Notes: a model not told the origin generated them from the sequence alone. 64,000 nt of DNA from Alphaproteobacteria bacterium (GCA_023898725.1 CP060236.1:672852-736851); one strand, 5' to 3'; counted from the stretch's first letter, positions 4,102 to 64,000 are shown. Numbers and translations are program-made.

Positions 4102-5508
4102 ATGTTTAAAAACCTACGTAATGGGGGGGTATTTAAACAATTTTTACTGACAACTACCTTTGTCATAACAATTTCCTTTGTGGGTAAGCACCCAATTCAC
4201 GCAAGTTCTGCTCCTTTGGCTGACGATGAAAATATCCTGCCAAGCATTGAAAACATTCAGCGCATGCGAACTACTCTCTTTGCCTTACCACCCTTGCAAA
4301 CTAAGGAAGATGCATACGCGGAACTTGGAGACCCAAGTGGGCAAGAGGCTCTTGTTCAAAATTCATACAACTTGGTTACAAGTTTGGGGGTTAAGGTTGC
4401 CGTGGAATCAATTCCCGCGATCGTTCGAGCACTCCTGCGTGACCGCATGAAACTGGCGAGGGAGGCACATAAGCTTTTAAGTATGCTGGGTCAGGTTCAA
4501 GAGGAATCTGAGGCCCTTTGTGTCGAAGTTCGTGGGATTGCGGAGATGTTCCCTGAGCCTCAATCAACGGATTTTGCAAGCCCGACGCGCAGTATTGCCA
4601 GTATTGAGTCTACAGAAAGTGCAGACAGTGCTTCAGGAGAAAGAGGTGTCTCCAATATGCTGGGAGAGAATCGTCATGCGGCACAAAGAAATCTGCGTAC
4701 ACTCAAGGCTGTCGTTAGAAATATGTTGGATCGTATTCGATTTCTTGATCAAGCATCAAGAGATCTTCAGAACAGTAGGCCATGGAATGAAGACACTGCA
4801 ACACCACCAAGGCCTGGAGGAAATTCTATACTGCAAGGATCAGAAGAATCCACCGATGACCCAACGTTACATGATCCTCTAGAAGGCATCACAATTGGTC
4901 TACGGACTTTCTTGGCAGATCATGCAATGGAAGTCTCCTCTGGTGATGATCTGAAAAGTCTTATAACAGGGGTGACCACACTGTGCCGTTCGCAATGCCA
5001 AAAATCCACTGATCTTATGCAACAGGTTGTGGAAACGAAGAAGGTGCTAAAAGATTTTGAAGATATAGATGACACACACACACTGCTTAACCTAGCACGC
5101 AAAGCTGCCACCGTTTCTAAGACACAAAAGACCCTCCTAGCAGAAGAGCGCACGCGTTCGGACAATCTGCAGGCGCGCGTGACTGATTGCGAGGAAAGAC
5201 TTGTGCGCCATGAGACGGCAGAGGCAAAAATACGGGATATTCTCGGTCTTTCGTCTGACATTTCGGCTGACTCTCTTGCCAAAAGGGTAGAAGAGAGCGT
5301 GCGTGAGCGTGAAGAGGCACAAAGGCGCCTTGCCTCTGCGTTAACAAAAGCCCAGGAGGACCTTGTGGCTGCCTTGCAAAGAAGTCAACAAGGTGTTGAA
5401 CCAAGTTCACGTACTCCCCTTCTAGAATCATCTAGGGCTGATTTACCATCTACTGATAACGAAGAGAGGGGTTCGGGAAACTCAGGCGGTTGTTGCTTGA
5501 TTTCATAA
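4102..5508 (+). CDS. Hypothetical exported coiled-coil protein with C-terminal CaaX-like box (…GSGNSGGCCLIS-stop)
   Basis: 468-aa ORF after a ~320-nt AT-rich leader. N-terminal hydrophobic segment with an IHA-SS cleavage-like site. Long E/K/R-rich helical regions. The last residues, CCLIS, were read directly from the DNA. Confidence 0.6.
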   Translation: MFKNLRNGGVFKQFLLTTTFVITISFVGKHPIHASSAPLADDENILPSIENIQRMRTTLFALPPLQTKEDAYAELGDPSGQEALVQNSYNLVTSLGVKVAVESIPAIVRALLRDRMKLAREAHKLLSMLGQVQEESEALCVEVRGIAEMFPEPQSTDFASPTRSIASIESTESADSASGERGVSNMLGENRHAAQRNLRTLKAVVRNMLDRIRFLDQASRDLQNSRPWNEDTATPPRPGGNSILQGSEESTDDPTLHDPLEGITIGLRTFLADHAMEVSSGDDLKSLITGVTTLCRSQCQKSTDLMQQVVETKKVLKDFEDIDDTHTLLNLARKAATVSKTQKTLLAEERTRSDNLQARVTDCEERLVRHETAEAKIRDILGLSSDISADSLAKRVEESVREREEAQRRLASALTKAQEDLVAALQRSQQGVEPSSRTPLLESSRADLPSTDNEERGSGNSGGCCLIS

Positions 5509-14865: not shown

Positions 14866-15305
14866 TCAGGTTTTTCTGTTGTTTGTGTGACAGATTCGCC
14901 TTCAGTGCTGTAGGCAGGAAGTTGTGACAAAGAAGGGTCCTCCTTGAGCACAGTTATTTGAGCCCGCGCAAGAAACTCCTTGCGCTTGAGTTCTGTGTTT
15001 TTGGCAATGAGCATTGAACGACGTTTGCGTAGCTCTTCTTCTGTTGCGAGGGGAATTTCTTGGGTATCAAGAAAAGCTGCGGCTGAAATGGGCTCTTTAA
15101 GAGGAGGTGTCTGTGTGATTTGTGCCTTGATCTTCTCTAAGTCTTTTTTGTCAGCAGAGACATCTGTGGAAGTTTTTTGAGGAGTAGAGGCTTTCTCCGC
15201 TGTAACTGGCTGGGCAAATGCGTGTGAAAAAGTTAAGGCTATGAGTGCAATCAAGCAACTGTGTGTCCATATATTTATCATCAGCGGTCTCTCTTCTCTT
15301 GTCAT
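14862..15305 (-). CDS. Hypothetical exported protein (operon member 7)
   Basis: 147 aa, signal peptide (CLIALIALTFSHAFA), K/E-rich. Overlaps the upstream gene by 4 nt. Confidence 0.5.
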   Translation of the reverse strand: MTREERPLMINIWTHSCLIALIALTFSHAFAQPVTAEKASTPQKTSTDVSADKKDLEKIKAQITQTPPLKEPISAAAFLDTQEIPLATEEELRKRRSMLIAKNTELKRKEFLARAQITVLKEDPSLSQLPAYSTEGESVTQTTEKPD

Positions 15306-16036
15306 TTCTCAGCATTAATTTTTGCAGACTGGTCTGGTAATCCCGAAACAGTTGCTTTTTGAACGAATTCTTTGATGGTACCAACTGCAGCACCTAAATC
15401 TTTGAGAACTTCTTCTGCTTGGGGAAGGGGTTCCGAATATTGGGCACGCCATTTTGCATGAATGGTCTGAGCATTATTAAGCCTTTCTTCACTTTTTTTG
15501 AGCATTGCCTGAAGCTTTTCAAGGTCTGTAGTCTCGGAGGCATCTCTTTGAATATTGCGTACATCAAGAAGCTCACTCAAAATCTCTGTAATCACTGACT
15601 TGCGTTCACTATCGATCACTTTTCGTGCTTCTTGATCGATGAGCTTCTGTTGGGAGGCTTTCTCACGGTCTTCCAGATCTTTTTCTCTTTGTTTTGCCCG
15701 TTCCTCAAACTTTGCACGAATAGCGCGCAACTTCTGATGTTTTTTTTGTGCAATACCTATATCTTTTGCCGCTTTGCGACGTGCTGCGTGTGCTTCTGTA
15801 CGTTTGGTTGCTAATTCATGCTGTGACTTCTTCAGCAACATACTGGCTGTATCAGTTTGTTTGCTTAGTGTTTCCATTTCCATGTGATCGGCTTCTGCTT
15901 TCAACTTTTGGGCCTCCGCAGATTTTACAGGATCAGCTGTAGGGGTTCCAGGTATATCAACAGCGATACAGGGTGACACACATAACAAAAGTCTCAGATA
16001 AGAAGCAAGTAGAGGAATAAAGCGATTATTGTGCAT
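15302..16036 (-). CDS. Hypothetical exported coiled-coil protein (operon member 6)
   Basis: 244 aa, signal peptide, long K/E/R/Q heptad-like helix. Overlaps member 5 by 11 nt. Confidence 0.5.
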   Translation of the reverse strand: MHNNRFIPLLASYLRLLLCVSPCIAVDIPGTPTADPVKSAEAQKLKAEADHMEMETLSKQTDTASMLLKKSQHELATKRTEAHAARRKAAKDIGIAQKKHQKLRAIRAKFEERAKQREKDLEDREKASQQKLIDQEARKVIDSERKSVITEILSELLDVRNIQRDASETTDLEKLQAMLKKSEERLNNAQTIHAKWRAQYSEPLPQAEEVLKDLGAAVGTIKEFVQKATVSGLPDQSAKINAEK

Positions 16037-17111
16037 GAGATTTTTCCTTGGCTAAAATTTTTGTAGACTCAGTGTTATACTCTTTTCCCTCAGGAACGGT
16101 GACTTTGAGACAGTTGTGGAATTCTTTGAAGAGTTGTTTCCAGCACCCGCTATCGTTTTTGGATTTGCAACTCCAGAAGTGCAGTCTATAACGACTGATA
16201 CACTCACTCTCTTTACGAACACCTTTAAAGTTTCCGTATAGTACCATGCCTTGACGTTTCTGCTCAGAAATTTTGAGCTTCTCTTCCACTTCAGCTTGTG
16301 TGCGCAGTGCTTCTTTTTTGCTCACCGTTTCTTTAATAGCTGCAGGAATTACTTTTTCATGGCATGTGAGTTTTTCGGCTTTTCGGGCCTCTTCAACAGC
16401 TTTCTTAATCTTTTTCTCACAGCTCATCTTTGATTTCGCCAGCTGAGATTCATAGTTAGATGCAAGCTGTTTTTTCAAATCGGCCACAGCTCGTTCAATT
16501 TCTTGACGCATATCGCGTTGCTGTTTCTCAAGAAAAGCTTTTTCCCGCTCTTCTATTGCTTTTGATTTCAAGGCATATTCTTTTTTAATCTTTTCCAGCG
16601 AATCTTTGTGCTTTCTTGTGACCTCTGGTGCAGATCCCCCTTCTGTTGTTGACTGTAGTTGAGTGGTGACGGCCTTTTCAAGCTTTACTTGACGGGCTTC
16701 GATGGCTTTTTCTTTATCATCCAGAGAGGCAATCTTTTGGTGCAGCTCTTCATTCATCTTTTTATTTTCGTCATGGACTTTTTTAAGATTATCGCGGGTT
16801 TCTTTGTTTTCTTTTTCCATACGTGTTCCCACAGATGCCAAAAATTCTTGTAGGGCCTTACTGTTGGCTTCAAGTCGGGCAATTTTTGCTTCGGAAAGGC
16901 TCTCTGGTCCTGGCGTGGTGTGGTTCCCTTTAGCGTTTGATGAGGATGCAGTAAATTCTAATTCATCTGTGTTTTCATAACCAACTTCGGCAAGAAGCGC
17001 CAAGTACTCTTGTTGCTTGGGCAAGTCTGATGATGGCTGTTCGCGCGCACCGACTGATAGGAGTGGCGAAAAGATCAGAAAAAAAACGGAGAGCGTGGCA
17101 ATGGTGCGCAT
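16026..17111 (-). CDS. Hypothetical exported coiled-coil protein with Cys-rich C-terminal domain (operon member 5)
   Basis: 361 aa, signal peptide MRTIATLSVFFLIFSPLLSVGA, about 200 aa of coiled coil, then a C-terminus with 6 Cys. Confidence 0.5.
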   Translation of the reverse strand: MRTIATLSVFFLIFSPLLSVGAREQPSSDLPKQQEYLALLAEVGYENTDELEFTASSSNAKGNHTTPGPESLSEAKIARLEANSKALQEFLASVGTRMEKENKETRDNLKKVHDENKKMNEELHQKIASLDDKEKAIEARQVKLEKAVTTQLQSTTEGGSAPEVTRKHKDSLEKIKKEYALKSKAIEEREKAFLEKQQRDMRQEIERAVADLKKQLASNYESQLAKSKMSCEKKIKKAVEEARKAEKLTCHEKVIPAAIKETVSKKEALRTQAEVEEKLKISEQKRQGMVLYGNFKGVRKESECISRYRLHFWSCKSKNDSGCWKQLFKEFHNCLKVTVPEGKEYNTESTKILAKEKSHAQ

Positions 17112-17207
17112 GCGTATTTTTTACTCGTTAGAACTATTTCAAATTTTAACAAAAAAAGATTAAGAATCTATTGCTATAGAAGGCCTATACAGGGGTTACG
17201 AAGAGCG

Positions 17208-17882
17208 CTACTGTGACAGAGAGGTGTCGTTTGTTGGTGCTGATGAGGAAGGTTTTTCATCGGCCTCTGTTCTCAGCTCTTCATTTTGGCTGCGCAGCTC
17301 ATCAATTTTTTCTTGTGTGACTTGGTTATCAAGCTTGGTCATATTAAGCATGATTTTGCTTCCCTCGGCATCGTAAGTTGCAATATCAGAAAGCGCTTTT
17401 GCTGAAATAGCTTGTGCGCGATTGATGTCACCATTGAGATACGCTATTTTTTGGTCATTATCATGCACCTCTCGGAGCAACCGCTGCAGTCGGTCTTTCA
17501 ACCACTCACTGAAGTTAGTGTCTGTTTTTGTTTCAGGATATCTTGAAACACACCGTTTTGTAATATCCCAAATTATGTCTTTACAGGCAGAGTTTCCTTC
17601 ACACTCAGATGTAATATCACTAACATTGCGACAGTCATTGAGAGCCATTGCTGCTTCATCAAGAGACTGTGCTTTTTTGTAAAGATTTTTTAGTTGCTCA
17701 TTTGTGACTGTGCTAATTGCTTCTTGAGAGGTATTTTCAATTTCAGCAATTTTACTTTCTACGTCATCAACGCTGACTGTCGGAAGGTCTGTTACCGCAA
17801 CAACAGGTGCGGTCGAGAGAAGACTGAAACAGAACCCCAGACCAAGAATAAAACCCTTGTTTATGTGAGTATTTATCATCAT
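17208..17882 (-). CDS. Hypothetical exported protein (operon member 4)
   Basis: 224 aa, signal peptide, 4 Cys, helical C-terminal half. Its start abuts the stop of member 3. Confidence 0.5.
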   Translation of the reverse strand: MMINTHINKGFILGLGFCFSLLSTAPVVAVTDLPTVSVDDVESKIAEIENTSQEAISTVTNEQLKNLYKKAQSLDEAAMALNDCRNVSDITSECEGNSACKDIIWDITKRCVSRYPETKTDTNFSEWLKDRLQRLLREVHDNDQKIAYLNGDINRAQAISAKALSDIATYDAEGSKIMLNMTKLDNQVTQEKIDELRSQNEELRTEADEKPSSSAPTNDTSLSQ

Positions 17883-18781
17883 CAGGATCCTTCTTTTGTG
17901 GCTTTTTGGGCCTCAGGGGTCTCGGTAGGGACTTTACTAGAATCATCTTCTGCTTCAAGAACAACTTCTGTCTCTTCTTCAACAGCTTTTTCTGTATCTG
18001 GAGTTGTTTTTTTGGCAGAGACATTATCAGATGTCCCCACGGCCTTTTGCTTTGATCCCTGGGTATTGATCACAAGGTCCTCAACAGTTGAGGAGCGTTT
18101 TTGGACATAGCCTTTATGAAAAAACCGTTTTCCGCAGTTTTTATGTAAAGAGTAGTACAGAACCTCCTCACATCCCTTATTTCCGTTACACTGAGGGCGT
18201 AGCTGGGAAAATGTATCGGCACACTCACGATAGAATCCCGCTTTTCGAAATAGGTCATCTGCCTTATTAAACATTGCGATGTATGCATAAAGATGATTGC
18301 GGGCAATAGCTGGTCTGATACACCCTTTGAGTGTGTGGCGTGCTTCTAACGTGCAATTTGAATCGTTAGCGCAGGCTGTTACTTTTGTGTTGTATTGCTC
18401 TGCACAGGCCCTGATGGTGGGGTCATCAATGCTTGAAAAGTCTGTCTTGGGGGGTACTGTTGGTTGTACGTCAGTACTCTTTTTTACAGCAGTGACTGGC
18501 TTTTCTTTCTGAACCTCTTCTTTTTTTGCCGGAGTTTTTTCTTTCTCTGGAGTCTTATCCTCTGGTTTTTTTGTCGCTTCTTTAGTGACAGCTGCAGCAG
18601 GAGCAGGCACAGCGGGAGTAGGCACAGGAGCCGCAGGGGTGTCAGATTTACCCGTAAAGATATCAAGAATTTTCTTGATTGTATCACCACTCTCTGATGT
18701 GGCGTGCACGGAAGCGGTGAGGCTTACCACACATGCAAAAAGAGACATAAATTTTAAATATCTATACATTCCTCGATCCAA
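17882..18781 (-). CDS. Hypothetical exported Pro/Lys-rich, Cys-rich protein (operon member 3)
   Basis: 299 aa, signal peptide, PAAPVPTPAVPAPAA / KEKTPAKKEE low-complexity linker, a central domain with about 10 Cys, and an acidic tail. Confidence 0.5.
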   Translation of the reverse strand: MDRGMYRYLKFMSLFACVVSLTASVHATSESGDTIKKILDIFTGKSDTPAAPVPTPAVPAPAAAVTKEATKKPEDKTPEKEKTPAKKEEVQKEKPVTAVKKSTDVQPTVPPKTDFSSIDDPTIRACAEQYNTKVTACANDSNCTLEARHTLKGCIRPAIARNHLYAYIAMFNKADDLFRKAGFYRECADTFSQLRPQCNGNKGCEEVLYYSLHKNCGKRFFHKGYVQKRSSTVEDLVINTQGSKQKAVGTSDNVSAKKTTPDTEKAVEEETEVVLEAEDDSSKVPTETPEAQKATKEGS

Positions 18782-18892: not shown

Positions 18893-19834
18893 TTATAGGC
18901 TATCAATACGAATCTCAATTCGCCTGTTTTCATAACAGTTGGCTTTGTCTTGAACGGGGTGGTGTTCACCAAACCCAGCTGCAGCAAGGCGTCCAGCAGG
19001 AATTCCTTGTTTTTCAAGTACCGCTACAACAGACATTGCGCGAGCAAAGGAAAGCTCCCAGTTGGATTTAAAGCGGATATTGTTGATTGGAACAGTATCT
19101 GTATGTCCGTCGACGCGTACAATCCAGGGAATAGCATTCGGTAGCTCCAAGAGAATGGTTTGAACAATGCTTGCCAGATCTTTAATTTTGGCCATACCGG
19201 CGGGGGTAAGTTTGGCAGAAGCAGTCTTGAAGAGAAGGTTTGAGTCGAACACAAACCGATCGTCATGTTGGCGAATGCCTTTGATTTTTTCTAATTTTTT
19301 TGAAACCTGCATTAAAAAATCCGAGCGCTTTTGTGCCATTGATACCAGAGCATTGACCTCAGACAGTTTCATTTGGAGGCTTTGTGACTCCTCTTTGAGG
19401 TTGCGTGTTTTTGCTGTTAGCTCAGTTACCATATGCTCAAGATTTTGAATGACCTGCTCTTTTTCTGTAAGAGTTTGCGCATGTGCGACATTTTGTATCT
19501 TTAAGGTATCTATGGTTTGTGTAAGAGACATCTCCCTATTTAATGACTGTAAAAGTGCCTGTTTCATCGCGTGAGAATTAAAGTTGGCGGCTGATAATTG
19601 CGCCCATAGTTTTTTCTTATCAATTGTTTCACGGGTGAGCTTTTGATTCGTCTCATTGAGTTGGGTTTTTTGGTCGCTTACGCGAAGACTTAGGTGTGTT
19701 TGGCCTACAACGAAAACAATAAGTGTAAAGATCACGACAAGAAGCACAGAGGAAAGCGCATCAACAAACCCTGGCCAAAAGTCCTGGTCTGTCGTCTCTC
19801 TGGTAAGGCTTCCTGAAAGCTTGCGTGTTGGCAT
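18893..19834 (-). CDS. MotB/TolR-like membrane protein: N-terminal TM helix with conserved Asp, long periplasmic coiled coil, C-terminal OmpA-type peptidoglycan-binding domain
   Basis: TM segment FWPGFVDALSSVLLVVIF aligns with MotB YADFMTAMMAFF and ExbD PFIDVMLVLL, including the Asp. C-terminus VRVDGHTDTVP…NWELSFARA…GFGEHHP…NRRIEIRI is a canonical OmpA_C. Likely ATG (MPTRKLSG) at 19834, 2 nt after the upstream stop. The longer ORF runs to 19927. Confidence 0.7.
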   Translation of the reverse strand: MPTRKLSGSLTRETTDQDFWPGFVDALSSVLLVVIFTLIVFVVGQTHLSLRVSDQKTQLNETNQKLTRETIDKKKLWAQLSAANFNSHAMKQALLQSLNREMSLTQTIDTLKIQNVAHAQTLTEKEQVIQNLEHMVTELTAKTRNLKEESQSLQMKLSEVNALVSMAQKRSDFLMQVSKKLEKIKGIRQHDDRFVFDSNLLFKTASAKLTPAGMAKIKDLASIVQTILLELPNAIPWIVRVDGHTDTVPINNIRFKSNWELSFARAMSVVAVLEKQGIPAGRLAAAGFGEHHPVQDKANCYENRRIEIRIDSL

Positions 19835-19836
19835 AA

Positions 19837-20097
19837 TCAATAATGTTCCTCTACTAAATCTACGCCCTTGAGCAATATAAGGATAATGGCAAATGGGAAA
19901 AAAAGTACCGACCAAAATAAGAGCCACCCCATGGATCCGCGGTACTCAAGAGTAAGTGTGATATCGTTGAAGTTTAAACCAAGATTTTTCACAGCCAGGA
20001 TAAGAGCAACAGGGGGAAAGGTAAACAAGAATAGAATAAAAAGAACAATGTTTCCCCTGTATGTAAAAGGGTAAGAATATTTTTTGACGATAGGCAT
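19837..20097 (-). CDS. Small 2-TM membrane protein translationally coupled to the MotB-like gene
   Basis: About 86 aa from the first ATG (a TTG-initiated ORF extends to 20109). Two hydrophobic helices, both containing prolines (FTFPPVALIL, FFPFAIILIL). Its TGA stop lies 2 nt before the downstream ATG. Confidence 0.45.
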   Translation of the reverse strand: MPIVKKYSYPFTYRGNIVLFILFLFTFPPVALILAVKNLGLNFNDITLTLEYRGSMGWLLFWSVLFFPFAIILILLKGVDLVEEHY

Positions 20098-20329
20098 AAG
20101 GCAATACAAAATTTTTATGCTAATAAAATATCATATATAGAAGCGTGCAGCAATATGGGGTAGATCCGCCTTCGGGCAAACGATTTGGGTAGCAGGGTCG
20201 TCACCAGATTGGGATTGTTAAAGTCTTGGGGTAAAAAGGTGATTCTTGGAACAAAATCATTGACACTGCATTTGGAATTACGATAAAGGAATATAACTCT
20301 TATAATTACGCAGAAATTTAAGGAAACAC

Positions 20330-20944
20330 ATGTCCAAAAGGATCGAAGCAAAGCACAAGATTGATCGTAGATTGCGCGTGAACCTGTGGGGAAGAGCAAA
20401 AAGCCCCATTAATAAACGCAATGCCCGCCCCGGCCAGCATTCCGCAAAACCTCACAAGGCATCAGAGTATGGTATTCAGCTTATGGCTAAGCAAAAACTT
20501 AAGGGTTACTATGGAAACTTGAATGAGCGTCAATTTCGCAATACCTATGAGCGCGCCGCTCGCGCTAAAGGTGACACGGGCGAGAATCTCATCAGCTTTC
20601 TTGAGCACCGCCTGGATGCCTTTGTGTATAGAGCCAAGTGGTCTCCTACTGTTTTTTCTGCCCGGCAGATTGTGAATCACGGTCACATTACGGTCAACGG
20701 TCAGCGTGTAAATATTCCTTCCTATCGCCTGCGTTTAGGCGACGTTGTGGAGTTGCGTGATACCATGCGCACGAATGTTGTGGTGCTAACAGCCCAACAA
20801 TCACCAGAGCGAGATATTCCAGACTACATTGATGTGGATGCGAAGTCCTTCACAGGAAAGTTTACACGTGATCCTTTGTTGGACGATGTTCCTTATCCTG
20901 TGCAAATGGAACCTAACCTGATCATTGAGTTTTACTCACGCTAG
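20330..20944 (+). CDS. rpsD: 30S ribosomal protein S4
   Basis: 204 aa; typical S4 N-terminus and S4 RNA-binding domain. Confidence 0.9.
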
Positions 20945-52024: not shown

Positions 52025-52869
52025 GCGCGTTCTCCTGATCGAAAATTAAGGCGGTCTTTGTGAGAAAGACATGTGTCAAGTCCTCGTCCATTTGCAATGC
52101 GGGTATTGCCAGATTGCGGGGCCCGAAGTCCCGATATTTTTAGAAACTTTTTTGCTTGGAGGGGGGTGAATGCGCCTCCATCAGTGTCCGAGCCGTTCAC
52201 TGCACCCAAGACAAGCCAGACCCCCTTCCATCCAAATGGCCTCTCTTTGACGCTGAATGCCGCGTATTGAAAACTGGAATCTGGCATATGTATGTTTGGA
52301 CGCAAAGGCCTATCAGGTGCGATGATATCGGGCAAAGACAGCATCTTGGCTTGAGAAAGGTGTAGCCAGAAAGCAGCGGCTTCACTTTTATGTGGGGCGT
52401 CAAGACCAGCACCACTTATGTGTCCGTCCCCTCTACCAACGGGGCTATCCTGACCAAATACTTGATCCGCCTCAGAAAAATTACCAGGGAGTGCATCAAA
52501 CGTTTCAACGAACTGGATTACTGCCCCGCGGATAGTAGTATATTGACTGATGGCACTTTTGATGCGCGCATCATCGACGCCTCCAAAAAGTTCGCCCACG
52601 CTGTTGCGCAAGAAAAAACCGACAACGACAAGTGCTATAAGTATCTCGATTAATCCAAACGCTGGGAGAGTGGGAGTGAATAAACGTTTGATATGTGCCT
52701 GTATTAGTGAGATGAAATCACCTCTAATCTTAGGCCAACAATGGGGCGATGGCCGTGAAGATGTATGCATTAATGTGTGCTTACACTCATTTGATTGTAG
52801 GTAAGAACCTTTTGTCCTAATCCTACAGGATGGTTGACATGATATAAAGGGCTCTTTGTCTAGCATCAC
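51991..52869 (-). CDS. Type IV pilin-like / pseudopilin protein, second paralog
   Basis: …TPTLPA-FGLIEILIALVVVGFFL has the same motif. True start uncertain: the longest ORF has about 70 aa before the motif. Confidence 0.45.
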   Translation of the reverse strand: MMLDKEPFISCQPSCRIRTKGSYLQSNECKHTLMHTSSRPSPHCWPKIRGDFISLIQAHIKRLFTPTLPAFGLIEILIALVVVGFFLRNSVGELFGGVDDARIKSAISQYTTIRGAVIQFVETFDALPGNFSEADQVFGQDSPVGRGDGHISGAGLDAPHKSEAAAFWLHLSQAKMLSLPDIIAPDRPLRPNIHMPDSSFQYAAFSVKERPFGWKGVWLVLGAVNGSDTDGGAFTPLQAKKFLKISGLRAPQSGNTRIANGRGLDTCLSHKDRLNFRSGERACTVYFRLWGG

Positions 52870-60781: not shown

Positions 60782-60936
60782 TACAAACTCTAAGAATCTT
60801 ATGAAGTTTTTGCAAAAAGGAAACCAATCGTCAAATTAAAAATAACATTTTTCTGATTTTCTGAGGATAGATAAGTATAAAAAATTAAGATTTTATTATG
60901 ATTCTTTATTTATAATAAAAAAAAATATTTTTTCCC

Positions 60937-63429
60937 ATGAGAAATTACATACGATTTTTTTTACTGTTACTTTTAAATATTTCTGTATATTCTAATCTTC
61001 AGGCAAAAGAGTCGATTGTTTTTTTTCAATCATCACATGCAGGAGTTAGTCAAGATTTACCTTTTGTAGTTACCAGCTCTAATAGACGGGCAAGTATTCA
61101 GGCAGCCCGGAAAAAACGCGCAGAAGAACGCCAAAAGGCCCGAGAAGCTGCAGCAGCAAAGCGCAAGGCCGATGCGGCAAAGCGCAGGGCTGATCGTGAA
61201 AAGAAAACTGCAAATAGAAAGTCTTCTACAAGGAGTAAATCTACTCGTCCTCGTATAAATCGTACTTCTAACCGCACCTCAAAGAGTACTAAGTCAAATA
61301 CACGTTCTGCGCGCACTGCTTCTAAAAAATCTACCAGGCCCACACGCAGCAGTAAAACATCGGTGAGTTCTTCGCGTGGTGCTAAAAAGAGGGCAGCTCC
61401 AGCTCGTGGGGGTTCTAAGAAAAGGGCAGCTCCGGCTCGTGGGGGTTCTAAGAAAAGGTCAGCTCCGGCCCGTGGGGGTGCTAAAAAAGATTCAGCTCCG
61501 GCTCGCGGGGGTGCTAAAAAGGGGGCAGCTCCGGCCCGTGGGGGTGCTAAAAAGAGGGCAGCTCCGGCCCGTGGGGGTTCTAAAAAAGGGGCAGCTCCGG
61601 CTCGTGGGGGTGCTAAAAAAGATTCAGCTCCGGCTCGTGGGGGTGCTAAAAAAGATTCAGCTCCGGCTCGCGGGGGTGCTAAAAAGGGGGCAGCTCCGGC
61701 TCGCGGGGGTGCTAAAAAGGGGGCAGCTCCGGCTCGCGGGGGTGCTAAAAAGGGGGCAGCTCCGGCCCGTGGAGGTTCTAAGAAAGCCGTCCGATCAGGG
61801 AAGAAAGATAATGAACCAGGCGATGATTCCGCCCGCGACAAGAAATCTGGCGGTTCGGATCAAAAGGGTTCTCGCAAAGGAAAAAGGAAGAAACAATCAG
61901 ACAATAGCCCTGACAGCGATGAACCAGGCGATGATTCCGCCCGCGACAAGCAGTCTGGCGGTTCGGATCAAAAGGGTTCTCGCAAAGGAAAAAGGAAGAA
62001 ACAATCAGACAATAGCCCTGACAGCGATGAACCAGGCGATGATTCCGCCCGCGACAAGCAGTCTGGCGGTTCGGATCAAAAGGGTTCTCGCAAAGGAAAA
62101 AGGAAGAAACAATCAGACAATAGCCCTGACAGCGATGAACCAGGCGATGATTCCGCCCGCGACAAGCAGTCTGGCGGTTCGGATCAAAAGGGTTCTCGCA
62201 AAGGAAAAAGGAAGAAACAATCAGACAATAGCCCTGACAGCGATGAACCAGGCGATGATTCCGCCCGCGACAAGCAGTCTGGCGGTTCGGATCAAAAGGG
62301 TTCTCGCAAAGGAAAAAGGAAGAAACAATCAGACAATAGCCCTGACAGCGATGAACCAGGCGATTTTTATGAATTAGATGAAGATTCCTACGATTTAGAG
62401 GGTAGTGATGATATTGAAGGTCCTCAGGAAAAAAGCTTTTTCGGTTCAGGTGAAACTTTTTCAGGCCTTACAGAAAAATCAAGTACTCTTGCTCAGCAAG
62501 CAAACGCTTCTACGGGAGGGCTTCTGGGACACGTTGCTAGGGGTATCGTGCAGGATGTTGTTCCTCAGAACATGCAGGAAGTTGCTGGGGCTGGGATGGC
62601 AGGTGATACCCAATCATTAGTTGGTATGGCAGCAGGTGTCGCTCCAGAAGGTTTTGTGCAGGACTATGCAAACAGTTATGCAGAAGGTGGTATGGAGGGA
62701 TTCCAGCAAGAAAGTCTTGGTATGGCAGCGCAGGTAGTTCCGGGAAGTGCTGGAAATGCGATCGAAGCGTATCAGCAAGGTGGCATGGAGGGATTCCAGC
62801 AAGAAAGTCTTGGTATGGCAGCGCAGGTAGTTCCGGGAAGTGCTGGGAATGCGATCGAAGCGTATCAGCAAGGTGGCATGGAGGGATTCCAGCAAGAAAG
62901 TCTTGGTATGGCAGCGCAGGTAGTTCCGGGAAGTGCTGGGAATGCGATCGAAGCGTATCAGCAAGGTGGCATGGAGGGATTCCAGCAAGAAAGTCTTGGT
63001 ATGGCAGCGCAGGTAGTTCCGGGAAGTGCTGGGAATGCGATCGAAGCGTATCACCAAGGTGGTATGGAGGGATTCCAACAAGAAAGTCTTGGTATGGCAG
63101 CGCAGGTGGGGGAATATGGATTCCCACAAGAATCATGGAACAAAAGTTTTGAGCATAACGAGGGTAGTGAATTTGGGACTAACGGGATGTTCGGTCTCAA
63201 TGCCGGACATGATGAAGGTTTTTACGAAGACCCCAACGCCGGCCACGGTTATGAACCCTATCAAGATTCCAATGCCGGATATGATGAAGGTTTTTACGAA
63301 GACCCCAACGCCGGCCACGGTTATGAACCCTATCAAGATTCCAATGCCGGATATGACGAAGGTTTTTACGAAGACCCCAATGCCTTCTATGGTGAGGGTT
63401 TTGACCAAAATTATGCTGGTGAGTACTAA
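60937..63429 (+). CDS. Large exported modular tandem-repeat protein (basic N-terminal half, acidic C-terminal half)
   Basis: 830 aa; signal peptide MRNYIRFFLLLLLNISVYSNLQA. Four different repeat families in series (see the repeat features). Preceded by a 155-nt AT-rich region with a poly-A tract. Confidence 0.65.
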   Translation: MRNYIRFFLLLLLNISVYSNLQAKESIVFFQSSHAGVSQDLPFVVTSSNRRASIQAARKKRAEERQKAREAAAAKRKADAAKRRADREKKTANRKSSTRSKSTRPRINRTSNRTSKSTKSNTRSARTASKKSTRPTRSSKTSVSSSRGAKKRAAPARGGSKKRAAPARGGSKKRSAPARGGAKKDSAPARGGAKKGAAPARGGAKKRAAPARGGSKKGAAPARGGAKKDSAPARGGAKKDSAPARGGAKKGAAPARGGAKKGAAPARGGAKKGAAPARGGSKKAVRSGKKDNEPGDDSARDKKSGGSDQKGSRKGKRKKQSDNSPDSDEPGDDSARDKQSGGSDQKGSRKGKRKKQSDNSPDSDEPGDDSARDKQSGGSDQKGSRKGKRKKQSDNSPDSDEPGDDSARDKQSGGSDQKGSRKGKRKKQSDNSPDSDEPGDDSARDKQSGGSDQKGSRKGKRKKQSDNSPDSDEPGDFYELDEDSYDLEGSDDIEGPQEKSFFGSGETFSGLTEKSSTLAQQANASTGGLLGHVARGIVQDVVPQNMQEVAGAGMAGDTQSLVGMAAGVAPEGFVQDYANSYAEGGMEGFQQESLGMAAQVVPGSAGNAIEAYQQGGMEGFQQESLGMAAQVVPGSAGNAIEAYQQGGMEGFQQESLGMAAQVVPGSAGNAIEAYQQGGMEGFQQESLGMAAQVVPGSAGNAIEAYHQGGMEGFQQESLGMAAQVGEYGFPQESWNKSFEHNEGSEFGTNGMFGLNAGHDEGFYEDPNAGHGYEPYQDSNAGYDEGFYEDPNAGHGYEPYQDSNAGYDEGFYEDPNAFYGEGFDQNYAGEY
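61384..61790 (+). repeat. 33-nt tandem repeat, about 12 copies (aa unit APARGG[AS]KK[RGD][AS])
   Basis: gggggtgctaaaaagggggcagctccggctcgc-type units, contiguous with no spacers. Confidence 0.85.
61813..62365 (+). repeat. 108-nt tandem repeat, 5 copies (aa unit EPGDDSARDKQSGGSDQKGSRKGKRKKQSDNSPDSD)
   Basis: Copies begin at 61813, 61921, 62029, 62137, 62245. Copies 2-5 are identical; copy 1 differs by 2 nt. Confidence 0.9.
62687..63110 (+). repeat. 93-nt tandem repeat, about 4.5 copies (aa unit GMEGFQQESLGMAAQVVPGSAGNAIEAYQQG)
   Basis: ttccagcaagaaagtcttggtatggcagcgcaggtagttccgggaagtgct… repeats with period 93. Confidence 0.9.
63205..63420 (+). repeat. 72-nt tandem repeat, about 3 copies (aa unit DEGFYEDPNAGHGYEPYQDSNAGY)
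   Basis: gatgaaggtttttacgaagaccccaacgccggccacggttatgaaccctatcaagattccaatgccggatat with period 72. Confidence 0.85.
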
Positions 63430-63527
63430 GCCCTGAGGAATGAAGGGACATTTCAATTATATTATTCATAATATCTTAACCAAACAATTCTACACTAAAG
63501 AAAACCACATTGTTTTGAGAGAGTATT

Positions 63528-64000
63528 ATGCGTAAAAAAACAAGTGTCCTTTCAGTATTTTTAGTATCATTGAGTCTATTTGGTTTTTCTCATGCTGTGG
63601 TGAAAGCTGAACCTTCTTCAGCGGCTCCTCGTCCTGTGCAAGCAACGGCGCGCAAACGTCCTACCGGTCCTGTTGGATCTCGTCCTGTCACAATGAACTA
63701 TTTGGCAGCGGCTAAGCGTGGGTCAGCGGCTCCTCGTCCTGTGCAGGCAACGGCGCGCAAACGTCCTACCGGTCCTGTTGGATCTCGTCCTGTCACAATG
63801 AACTATTTGGCAGCGGCTAAGCGTGGGTCAGCGGCTCCTCGTCCTGTGCAAGCAACGGCGCGCAAACGTCCTACCGGTCCTGTTGGATCTCGTCCTGTGA
63901 TGCCGTCTGGAATGGCTGGTCAGATTGCCAATTTTGATCGTAGCACGTTGCGTTCGGCTGGTTCTCCTGTGCCTTCTTCTGTGCCTTCTTCTGGTGGAGA
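63528..64000 (+). CDS. Second exported tandem-repeat protein (3-prime partial, runs off the window)
   Basis: ATG at 63528 after an SD-like gagag. Signal peptide MRKKTSVLSVFLVSLSLFGFSHA. 35-aa basic Pro-rich unit SAAPRPVQATARKRPTGPVGSRPVTMNYLAAAKRG repeated 3 times. Confidence 0.6.
   Translation, partial: MRKKTSVLSVFLVSLSLFGFSHAVVKAEPSSAAPRPVQATARKRPTGPVGSRPVTMNYLAAAKRGSAAPRPVQATARKRPTGPVGSRPVTMNYLAAAKRGSAAPRPVQATARKRPTGPVGSRPVMPSGMAGQIANFDRSTLRSAGSPVPSSVPSSGG
63621..63935 (+). repeat. 105-nt tandem repeat, 3 copies
   Basis: The gcggctcctcgtcctgtgca… unit recurs at 63621, 63726, 63831. Confidence 0.85.

Follow-up and report, generated by a model that had tools for sequence, protein, structure and literature searches.

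Two adjacent genes filled with tandem repeats stand at the end of a 64,000-nucleotide (nt) stretch of DNA from an alphaproteobacterium (Alphaproteobacteria bacterium, GCA_023898725.1, CP060236.1:672852-736851; this whole stretch is referred to below as the window), raising the question of whether such sequences are genuine genes and, if so, where their products act. On the evidence of synteny, the first (gene A) and the second (gene B) make up a same-strand two-gene cassette belonging to a narrow clade of uncultured small-genome alphaproteobacteria. We regard the chances as roughly even that the pair encodes exported or surface-exposed disordered proteins, probably facing a host or the environment. 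The window lies on a contig of 1,107,460 bp from a metagenome-assembled genome (MAG). The copy numbers given here are those of the MAG assembly, and the results cover one strain of the species.

Architecture of the two repeat genes

Gene A (60937-63429, + strand) is an open reading frame (ORF) of 830 residues with an ATG start, inside which Tandem Repeats Finder recovers four successive in-frame arrays. The initial annotation had described the same four array families together with a second repeat gene at 63528, and both the ORF call and the repeat search bear it out. The features of gene A are listed here with the repeat statistics of Tandem Repeats Finder; L003 and L004 denote contigs of a sister species and of a third species.

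60937-61005, + strand: predicted Sec signal peptide of gene A, MRNYIRFFLLLLLNISVYSNLQA before the putative cleavage site and KE after it, called by the n/h/c-region rule; equivalent N-terminus in L003 and L004
61075-61230, + strand: predicted long helix rich in Arg, Lys, Ala, and Glu, residues 47-98; predicted local distance difference test score (pLDDT) 72-92; conserved in L003
61378-61785, + strand: 33-nt array, 12.4 copies, 89% matches; encodes G(A/S)KK(R/D/G)(A/S)APARG
61811-62364, + strand: 108-nt array, 5.1 copies, 99% matches; encodes DEPGDDSARDKQSGGSDQKGSRKGKRKKQSDNSPDS
62419-62802, + strand: Gly/Ala/Gln-rich core, residues 495-622; 50% identical to L003; contains VQ.VVPQ and MAGDTQ.L.G.AA
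62684-63107, + strand: 93-nt array, 4.6 copies, 98% matches; encodes GGMEGFQQESLGMAAQVVPGSAGNAIEAYQQ
63198-63384, + strand: 72-nt array, 2.6 copies, 97% matches; encodes NAGYDEGFYEDPNAGHGYEPYQDS

A conserved PFV(V/T)T motif precedes the helix, and the core includes the ancestral copy of the 31-residue unit. The division into a basic N-terminal and an acidic C-terminal half, also noted initially, is confirmed by the charge count: residues 1-476 carry a net charge of +76 and residues 477-830 one of -52, giving +24 for the whole protein. The 72-nt array sits in an acidic Tyr/Gly-rich tail, and the last 130 residues of gene A contain 14 Tyr and 27 Asp plus Glu with a single Lys or Arg.

Gene B follows on the same strand. 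Its C-terminus lies beyond position 64000, and the results for gene B cover its 5' part only. The visible part is strongly basic (net charge +23) and rich in Ala, Ser, Pro, and Arg.

63528-64000, + strand: gene B, 5' part, 157 codons visible; ATG start, ORF extending past the end of the window
From 63528, + strand: predicted signal peptide of gene B, MRKKTSVLSVFLVSLSLFGFSHA before the putative cleavage site and VV after it
63618-63898, + strand: 105-nt array of gene B, 2.7 copies, 98% matches; encodes SAAPRPVQATARKRPTGPVGSRPVTMNYLAAAKRG; per-copy identity 99-100%

All five array periods (33, 108, 93, 72, and 105 nt) are divisible by 3. Copies within the 108-, 93-, 72-, and 105-nt arrays are 98-100% identical, and copies 2-5 of the 108-nt unit are 100% identical, which fits the recent expansion or concerted evolution that had been proposed for the locus. 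The claim of near-100% identity within every family holds for these four arrays and fails for the 33-nt array, the most diverged of the five, whose copies are 82-97% identical to their own consensus, with 21 of the 35 differences among them at third codon positions. The approximately three copies of the 72-nt unit and three of the 105-nt unit that were originally counted come to 2.6 and 2.7 instead. GC content is ~45% in the window and rises to 47-50% across the repeat genes because of their Gly, Ala, Pro, and Arg codons.

The other 61 kb of the window contain no array of comparable size or identity. The runner-up, a 39-nt unit in 3.6 copies at 37890-38031, encodes AEAAKKAAEDAAK within a predicted signal-peptide protein (37704-38432, + strand) that continues into a nonrepetitive C-terminal part and matches no family.

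Orthologs and divergence of the cassette

Using the adjacent DsbD-like gene as an anchor, we read the contigs of its closest relatives. In the sister species L003 (DsbD 51% and MFS transporter 70% identical to those of the window) the gene order is that of the window: DsbD, the MFS gene on the minus strand, a gene A ortholog of 598 residues, and then on the plus strand a gene B ortholog (5278 to beyond 6444) that is cut by the end of the contig. In the third species (L004, also recovered as L008) the order COX3-SURF1-DsbD-MFS is followed by a gene A-like ORF, of which the initial 39 codons are present before the contig ends. In the next lineage out (L002/L006; DsbD 43% identical) other genes follow DsbD, and genes A and B are absent at the site. 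L002 encodes nearby, at 19072-20571 (- strand), an orphan secreted protein of 499 residues, rich in Ala, Ser, and Pro and with a coiled-coil C-terminus, in which we see no relation to gene A or gene B.

The gene A ortholog of L003 shares the whole plan of its counterpart in the window, comprising a signal peptide, PFV(V/T)T, the Arg/Lys/Ala/Glu helix, a Ser/Lys-rich basic region, an acidic block, the core, and the tail. The two cores share the motifs ANA.TGG, VQ.VVPQ, and MAGDTQ.L.G.AA, followed by GG..G.Q..SL.MA...PG.AG...AY. Both proteins end in an acidic Tyr/Gly/Pro tail that finishes in Y and shares DP(Y/N)AG, and their charge profiles have the same shape, running from about +17 to -10. 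Between these conserved islands the repeat units and their copy numbers differ completely: L003 carries another 108-nt unit in 1.8 copies together with units of 24, 27, and 81 nt, all multiples of 3. The 31-residue unit is present in 4.6 copies in the window versus ~1.5 in L003, and we take the 93-nt array to be a lineage-specific amplification of the unit seen in the sister species. Over the alignment, identity to L003 is 28% for gene A versus 50% for DsbD and 70% for the MFS transporter.

Orthologs that have kept their plan and changed their arrays therefore argue that genes A and B are real and intact, selected for architecture and a few motifs, fast-evolving, and confined to a narrow clade. 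The intact 598-residue ORF with the same architecture likewise shows that gene A is not a pseudogene. The pair illustrates how disordered repeat proteins may evolve, with motifs, charge blocks, and domain order fixed and the arrays replaced and independently re-amplified in each species.

It is highly improbable that the locus is an assembly artefact, or a set of decaying or noncoding repeats in which the ORF is long only through the concatenation of stop-free units. Long spurious ORFs do run across the arrays in other frames and on the other strand, and the exact 830-residue product is missing from the protein collection. Short-read assemblies do stop here as well: three independent contigs end in or at these genes, one of them (L005, Logan SRR12358675) at 61456 in the third 33-nt copy, L004 117 nt into gene A, and L003 within gene B, so that the locus breaks short-read assemblies much as had been predicted for it. 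However, L005 is identical to the window up to ~61446, which confirms the locus in its 5' part. Only the plus-strand frame is kept in L003, with matching N-terminus, core, and tail. Every array period in either species is divisible by 3, the substitutions of the 33-nt array are biased to third codon positions, and the noncoding blocks upstream are conserved, all of which argues for a genuine coding sequence.

These noncoding blocks lie in the two spacers that border gene A.

60782-60936, no strand assigned: divergent intergenic region between the MFS gene (-) and gene A (+); AT-rich; aligned as DNA across three species
63430-63527, + strand: spacer between gene A and gene B; blocks conserved with L003

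The counterparts of the first region are found at 3227-3371 of L003 and 4913-5071 of L004, where the flanking proteins are only 50-70% identical. The blocks invariant in all three species are ATCTTATGAAGTTTTT, TCAAA.TAAAAAT, and a tract of eight A residues (A8) just before the ATG of gene A, and no evident Shine-Dalgarno sequence is found upstream of this start. The region looks like a conserved regulatory region to which no known motif is assigned. In the second spacer a sigma-70-like site at 63445-63472 is the only promoter-like site of the region and is surrounded by the conserved blocks; the promoter scan found 1 such site versus 2.9 expected, so the site is weak when taken alone. This arrangement suggests that expression is regulated and that gene B may have a promoter of its own.

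Judged by sequence searches alone, the two genes would pass for singletons. Neither gene A nor gene B scores above threshold with any Pfam or NCBIfam family, nothing among 5.8 billion clustered proteins matches the visible part of gene B, scans of genome collections return only L004/L008, metagenome and viral scans give no homolog, and tblastn against plasmids gives no match. Gene A has a sole match among the 5.8 billion proteins, P0005 (a Logan protein of 733 residues, high-GC), which we rejected as an unrelated protein that shares a compositional 11-residue Ala/Pro/Arg/Gly/Lys periodicity. Its residues ~470-600 carry a (P/A)AR(D/G)GS(K/R)(M/L)G(P/S)A array with the period of GAKKxAAPARG, and this array appears to be convergent low-complexity sequence. 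A phmmer search of 1.84 billion representatives with the C-terminal 354 residues of gene A, chosen as its less biased part, returned four matches that were likewise rejected as unrelated repeat-on-repeat alignments. Word- and profile-based searches missed an ortholog that was later revealed by synteny, so that proteins of this kind are systematically under-reported as singletons.

Predicted export, disorder, and possible function

Gene A, gene B, and their orthologs all begin with a positively charged n-region followed by a hydrophobic h-region and an AxA-like cleavage site. Models built by AlphaFold from single sequences, which serve only as a rough guide, place a helix over the signal-peptide region of both gene A (residues 2-22) and gene B (residues 7-17). 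Export of the two products is plausible on this pattern, in keeping with the earlier description of the larger one as an exported protein. Gene A is predicted to be almost wholly disordered, with pLDDT below 50 at 726 of 830 residues. The helix at residues 47-98 is its only confident structured element besides the signal peptide, and both the core and every 31-residue unit show a weak helix-pair propensity. Disorder is likewise predicted for the visible part of gene B, with the exception of its signal peptide.

We propose that the N-terminal signal peptides would send both products through the Sec pathway, and that both would work outside the cytoplasm as extended, disordered, multivalent scaffolds whose function would reside in conserved short motifs and charge blocks. 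Slipped-strand or unequal recombination would change array length in frame, and such changes would shift the valency, length, and charge of the scaffold. Gene A would be a block polyampholyte in which the basic helix and the Lys/Arg/Ser-rich arrays could bind nucleic acid, acidic lipids, or a cell surface, and its acidic Tyr-rich tail would face outward or associate with basic partners, gene B among them. Gene B would present its Pro/Arg-rich repeats and then a beta-thymosin/WH2-type motif that may bind monomeric actin. Other motifs in these proteins, KGKRKK (nuclear-localization-like), RxxPxxP (SH3-like), and YxxP, were set aside as arising too easily by chance in low-complexity sequence.

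The basic half of gene A also invites comparison with histone H1-like proteins. AlgP and chlamydial Hc2 are built from short Lys/Ala/Pro-rich tandem units and have a very high positive charge, and the 12 G(A/S)KKxAAPARG repeats, the basic helix, and the charge of +76 over 476 residues resemble them in both respects; a weak, sub-threshold "Pro-rich" match in Pfam points in the same direction. We nevertheless consider it very unlikely that gene A is a nucleoid-associated protein of this kind, compacting the DNA of its own cell. AlgP and Hc2 are cytoplasmic and have neither a signal peptide nor an acidic half, whereas gene A has both: its hydrophobic N-terminal signal, kept in three species, is incompatible with a cytoplasmic nucleoid protein, and its C-terminal 350 residues are acidic. 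Nor is there a linker-histone or Hc family match, and the sole database match, P0005, reflects compositional periodicity in an unrelated protein.

We favor a role facing a host or the environment for the pair, on the cell surface or in released form, because the clade is narrow, divergence is rapid, the genome is only 1.1 Mb, secreted orphan proteins are many, and one of these orphans ends in CLIS (see below). Members of the obligately host-associated Holosporales have genomes of 0.59-2.8 Mb with 29.5-50% GC (PMC11909080), a size range that takes in the 1,107,460-bp contig. The organism may be intracellular. Several points weigh against this interpretation. The signal peptides were called only by rule of thumb and from AlphaFold helices, and Sec export of a segment with a charge of +76 would be unusual. 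No route across the outer membrane is visible in the window, where the sole hint is two weak pseudopilin-like ORFs. The unseen C-terminus of gene B could hold a domain that explains its function. There is also no direct evidence of a eukaryotic host, a literature search on the sample run, study, and assembly accessions gave no paper, and no link emerged between the MAG and a candidate source study of activated sludge. The pseudopilin-like ORFs are two overlapping orphans at 51338-52869 (- strand) with prepilin-like N-termini (AFGLIE...), which match the type II secretion pseudopilin GspG weakly (E = 0.0013 and 0.066, far under the cut-off). They could be what is left of a type II secretion or type IV pilus system through which Sec-exported proteins could cross the outer membrane.

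Following the 105-nt array, gene B contains a short element that bears on the question of a host.

63909-63959, + strand: candidate beta-thymosin/WH2-like motif; GMAGQIANFDRSTLRSA in the window, GLAAQIRGFDRSKLRST in L003

Two islands of gene B are kept in both orthologs, RP.TM(N/D)Y.AAA.RG.AA and RP.M.SG(M/L)A.QI..FDRS.LRS, and the pattern F[DN][KR]S.L[KR] has a single occurrence in the window, all six frames considered, and a single one in L003, where its position within gene B is the same. This conservation marks the motif as a functionally constrained short element. WH2 domains are defined by an N-terminal helix of ~17 residues whose hydrophobic side chains enter the actin cleft, a loop, and an LKKV/LKKT element with basic residues and no proline (10.1101/467431). 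The residues common to the two orthologs are spaced as in domain D1 of Ciboulot (LKSQLEGFDKSKLKNA): (M/L)xxxIxxF is invariant in both and has the spacing of LKSQLEGF in Ciboulot D1, and the LKKV position is occupied by LRSA in the window and LRST in L003, each of which has the Leu and a single basic residue and is free of Pro. Like Ciboulot D1 (LKNA), both lack the second basic residue. A phmmer search with the 49-residue segment of L003 against 177,635 distinct PDB sequences places three actin-bound peptides at the top, namely Ciboulot D1 (3u9z, E = 0.0052), a thymosin-beta4 chimera (3u9d, E = 0.016), and a Tβ4/Cordon-bleu chimera (E = 0.096), and the sole Pfam match of this segment is Thymosin (PF01290; E = 0.042).

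Against an actin-binding function stands, in the first place, the strength of these matches. The Pfam hit reaches 14 bits with a cut-off of 24.8, a profile made from both sequences ranks the same three PDB chains first at only E = 0.17-0.53, the window segment has no thymosin or WH2 match in PDB or Pfam, and the whole proteins have none in Pfam. The window copy outscores 5,000 shuffles of itself but comes only 2nd and 5th when 1,189 six-frame segments of the window are scored against the same references, and is thus at chance level. We downgraded the thymosin/WH2 claim because the whole-window control is fairer than the shuffle test. The AlphaFold model has a helix at residues 138-145 of gene B, at low confidence, and none on GMAGQIANF, and WH2 domains predicted in Rickettsia Sca2 have proved wrong (10.1101/467431). 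That the gene B motif is an actin-binding module we therefore rate somewhat below an even chance, its support coming from the ortholog and from conservation, not from the window sequence. The segment that outranks the window copy was examined and rejected as a spurious gapped alignment.

The gene B ortholog of L003 (5278-6444) also repeats the short elements SRP(S/T).Y(A/R).A(L/A) and SRFRSAA.ASR, which resemble the RPVTMNYLAAAKRG unit of the window. These elements and that unit may be degenerate copies of one helix-forming motif.

A more specific version of the host-facing interpretation, in which gene B is a Sec-exported actin-binding protein and gene A its co-evolving polyampholyte partner, the two acting as an effector pair on the host cytoskeleton and host nucleus, strikes us as unlikely. 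In such a pair the basic half of gene A would engage nucleic acid or membranes, and its FYEDP/GYEPY tail would serve as bait for host kinases or adaptors. If this version were true, an unrecognized small-genome alphaproteobacterial lineage would be an associate of eukaryotic cells, and the conserved thymosin-like motif offers a cheap and direct lead on such an association. Even the broader host-facing role, if correct, would make genes A and B the first effector candidates of an uncultured small-genome alphaproteobacterial clade without known biology.

Genomic context and comparison with known systems

Elsewhere the window carries core genes that are usual in alphaproteobacteria, namely those for leucyl aminopeptidase, DnaX, RecR, PriA, YidC, alpha-type AddA and AddB, a UbiH-family hydroxylase, SURF1, the DsbD-like protein, and the MFS transporter, together with both ATP synthase operons. 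Alongside these the window is unusually rich in orphan proteins with signal-peptide-like N-termini. One of them (4102-5508, + strand; 468 residues, no Pfam or NCBIfam match) combines a signal-like N-terminus with an acidic, coiled-coil-like body and ends in ...GGCCLIS, so that its last four residues, CLIS, form a CaaX-like box. CaaX boxes are prenylated by eukaryotic farnesyltransferase and are used by some effectors of Legionella and Salmonella, and the CLIS terminus may be a hint of life inside a eukaryote. Four consecutive orphan ORFs of 244, 361, 224, and 299 residues at 15302-18781 (- strand), with signal-like N-termini, Lys/Glu-rich coiled-coil or Pro-rich segments, and no Pfam match, adjoin an OmpA-family gene at 18893-19927. 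Two adjacent orphan ORFs at 38572-39675 and 39672-40508 (both + strand) overlap by 4 nt, have predicted signal peptides and acidic low-complexity N-terminal parts, match no family, and may be paralogous.

This setting can also be read in a more conservative way, which we judge to be an appreciable minority possibility: genes A and B could encode housekeeping components of the cell envelope, TonB-, TolA-, or SPOR-type spacers or linkers that span the periplasm, with repeats that only set length and no role toward a host. In both products, as in such spacers, low-complexity sequence that is charged or Pro-rich comes after a signal peptide or N-terminal anchor, and acidic and basic repeat blocks also occur together in TonB-type spacers. 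The neighboring DsbD, SURF1, and MFS genes are envelope or respiratory housekeeping genes, the AEAAKKAAEDAAK protein at 37704-38432 is another envelope-like repeat protein, and the part of gene B beyond the window could hold an envelope domain. However, gene A has no TonB_C, TolA, OmpA, SPOR, or LysM domain, and neither the acidic Tyr-rich tail nor the FDRS.LRS motif has a known envelope role. Housekeeping envelope parts are usually broadly conserved, whereas this pair diverges much faster than its neighbors, is absent at the site in the next lineage, and has no homolog found elsewhere.

The closest functional parallels come from host-associated bacteria. The tandem repeat proteins (TRPs) of Ehrlichia chaffeensis, TRP32/47/75/120, are acidic type 1 secretion substrates with a noncleaved C-terminal signal and no N-terminal signal peptide; they face the host and function through short linear motifs (PMC8112483). 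Like genes A and B, they are alphaproteobacterial, largely disordered, and composed of tandem repeats whose sequence, length, and number change from one species to another. The likeness to tandem-repeat proteins of intracellular alphaproteobacteria drawn in the initial annotation stands in this respect, as an analogy resting on species-varying repeats, and does not extend to secretion signal, charge, or homology. It is extremely improbable, even in an alphaproteobacterium, that genes A and B truly belong to the TRP effectors of Ehrlichia/Anaplasmataceae, a family of type 1 secreted acidic nucleomodulins. Their signals are N-terminal and Sec-type and not of the C-terminal type 1 secretion kind, gene A has a net charge of +24 with one half at +76 and gene B is strongly basic, in contrast to the acidic isoelectric points of the TRPs, and the searches of 5.8 billion and 1.84 billion proteins found no similarity to any TRP.

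Holospora provides a parallel with respect to the predicted export and to both proposed partners. Periplasmic proteins of Holospora obtusa with signal peptides are exposed or released to the host during infection; among the Holospora proteins, the 63-kDa PRP1, a DNA-binding protein made with a signal peptide, is secreted into the host nucleus, and an 89-kDa protein of the invasion tip has two actin-binding motifs (PMC9866348). As with genes A and B, whose signal peptides are predicted, these are proteins of novel sequence with signal peptides, in this case from an alphaproteobacterial symbiont, and they would parallel a polyanion-binding gene A and an actin-motif gene B. We found no sequence relationship between the two sets, and the DNA binding of PRP1 is attributed to a D5_N domain and not to basic repeats.

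For gene B the comparison extends to bacterial effectors with WH2-type modules, such as VopL/VopF of Vibrio, BimA of Burkholderia, Tarp of Chlamydia, and MavH/RavH of Legionella (PMC9569871, PMC5412564, PMC10381072, PMC13481308). These share with gene B a Pro-rich repeat region and, after it, a short motif that combines a hydrophobic helix pattern with L-(K/R)-x-(T/A/V). WH2 nucleators usually have tandem copies, whereas gene B shows one motif in its visible part, with one basic residue at the LKKV position and scores under family thresholds, and the effectors just named are secreted by type 3, 4, or 5 systems, in contrast to gene B with its predicted Sec signal. The comparisons with Holospora and the Ehrlichia TRPs are ones of analogy and not of family membership, and we regard the locus as a new clade-restricted variant within a known class, the exported disordered tandem-repeat proteins.

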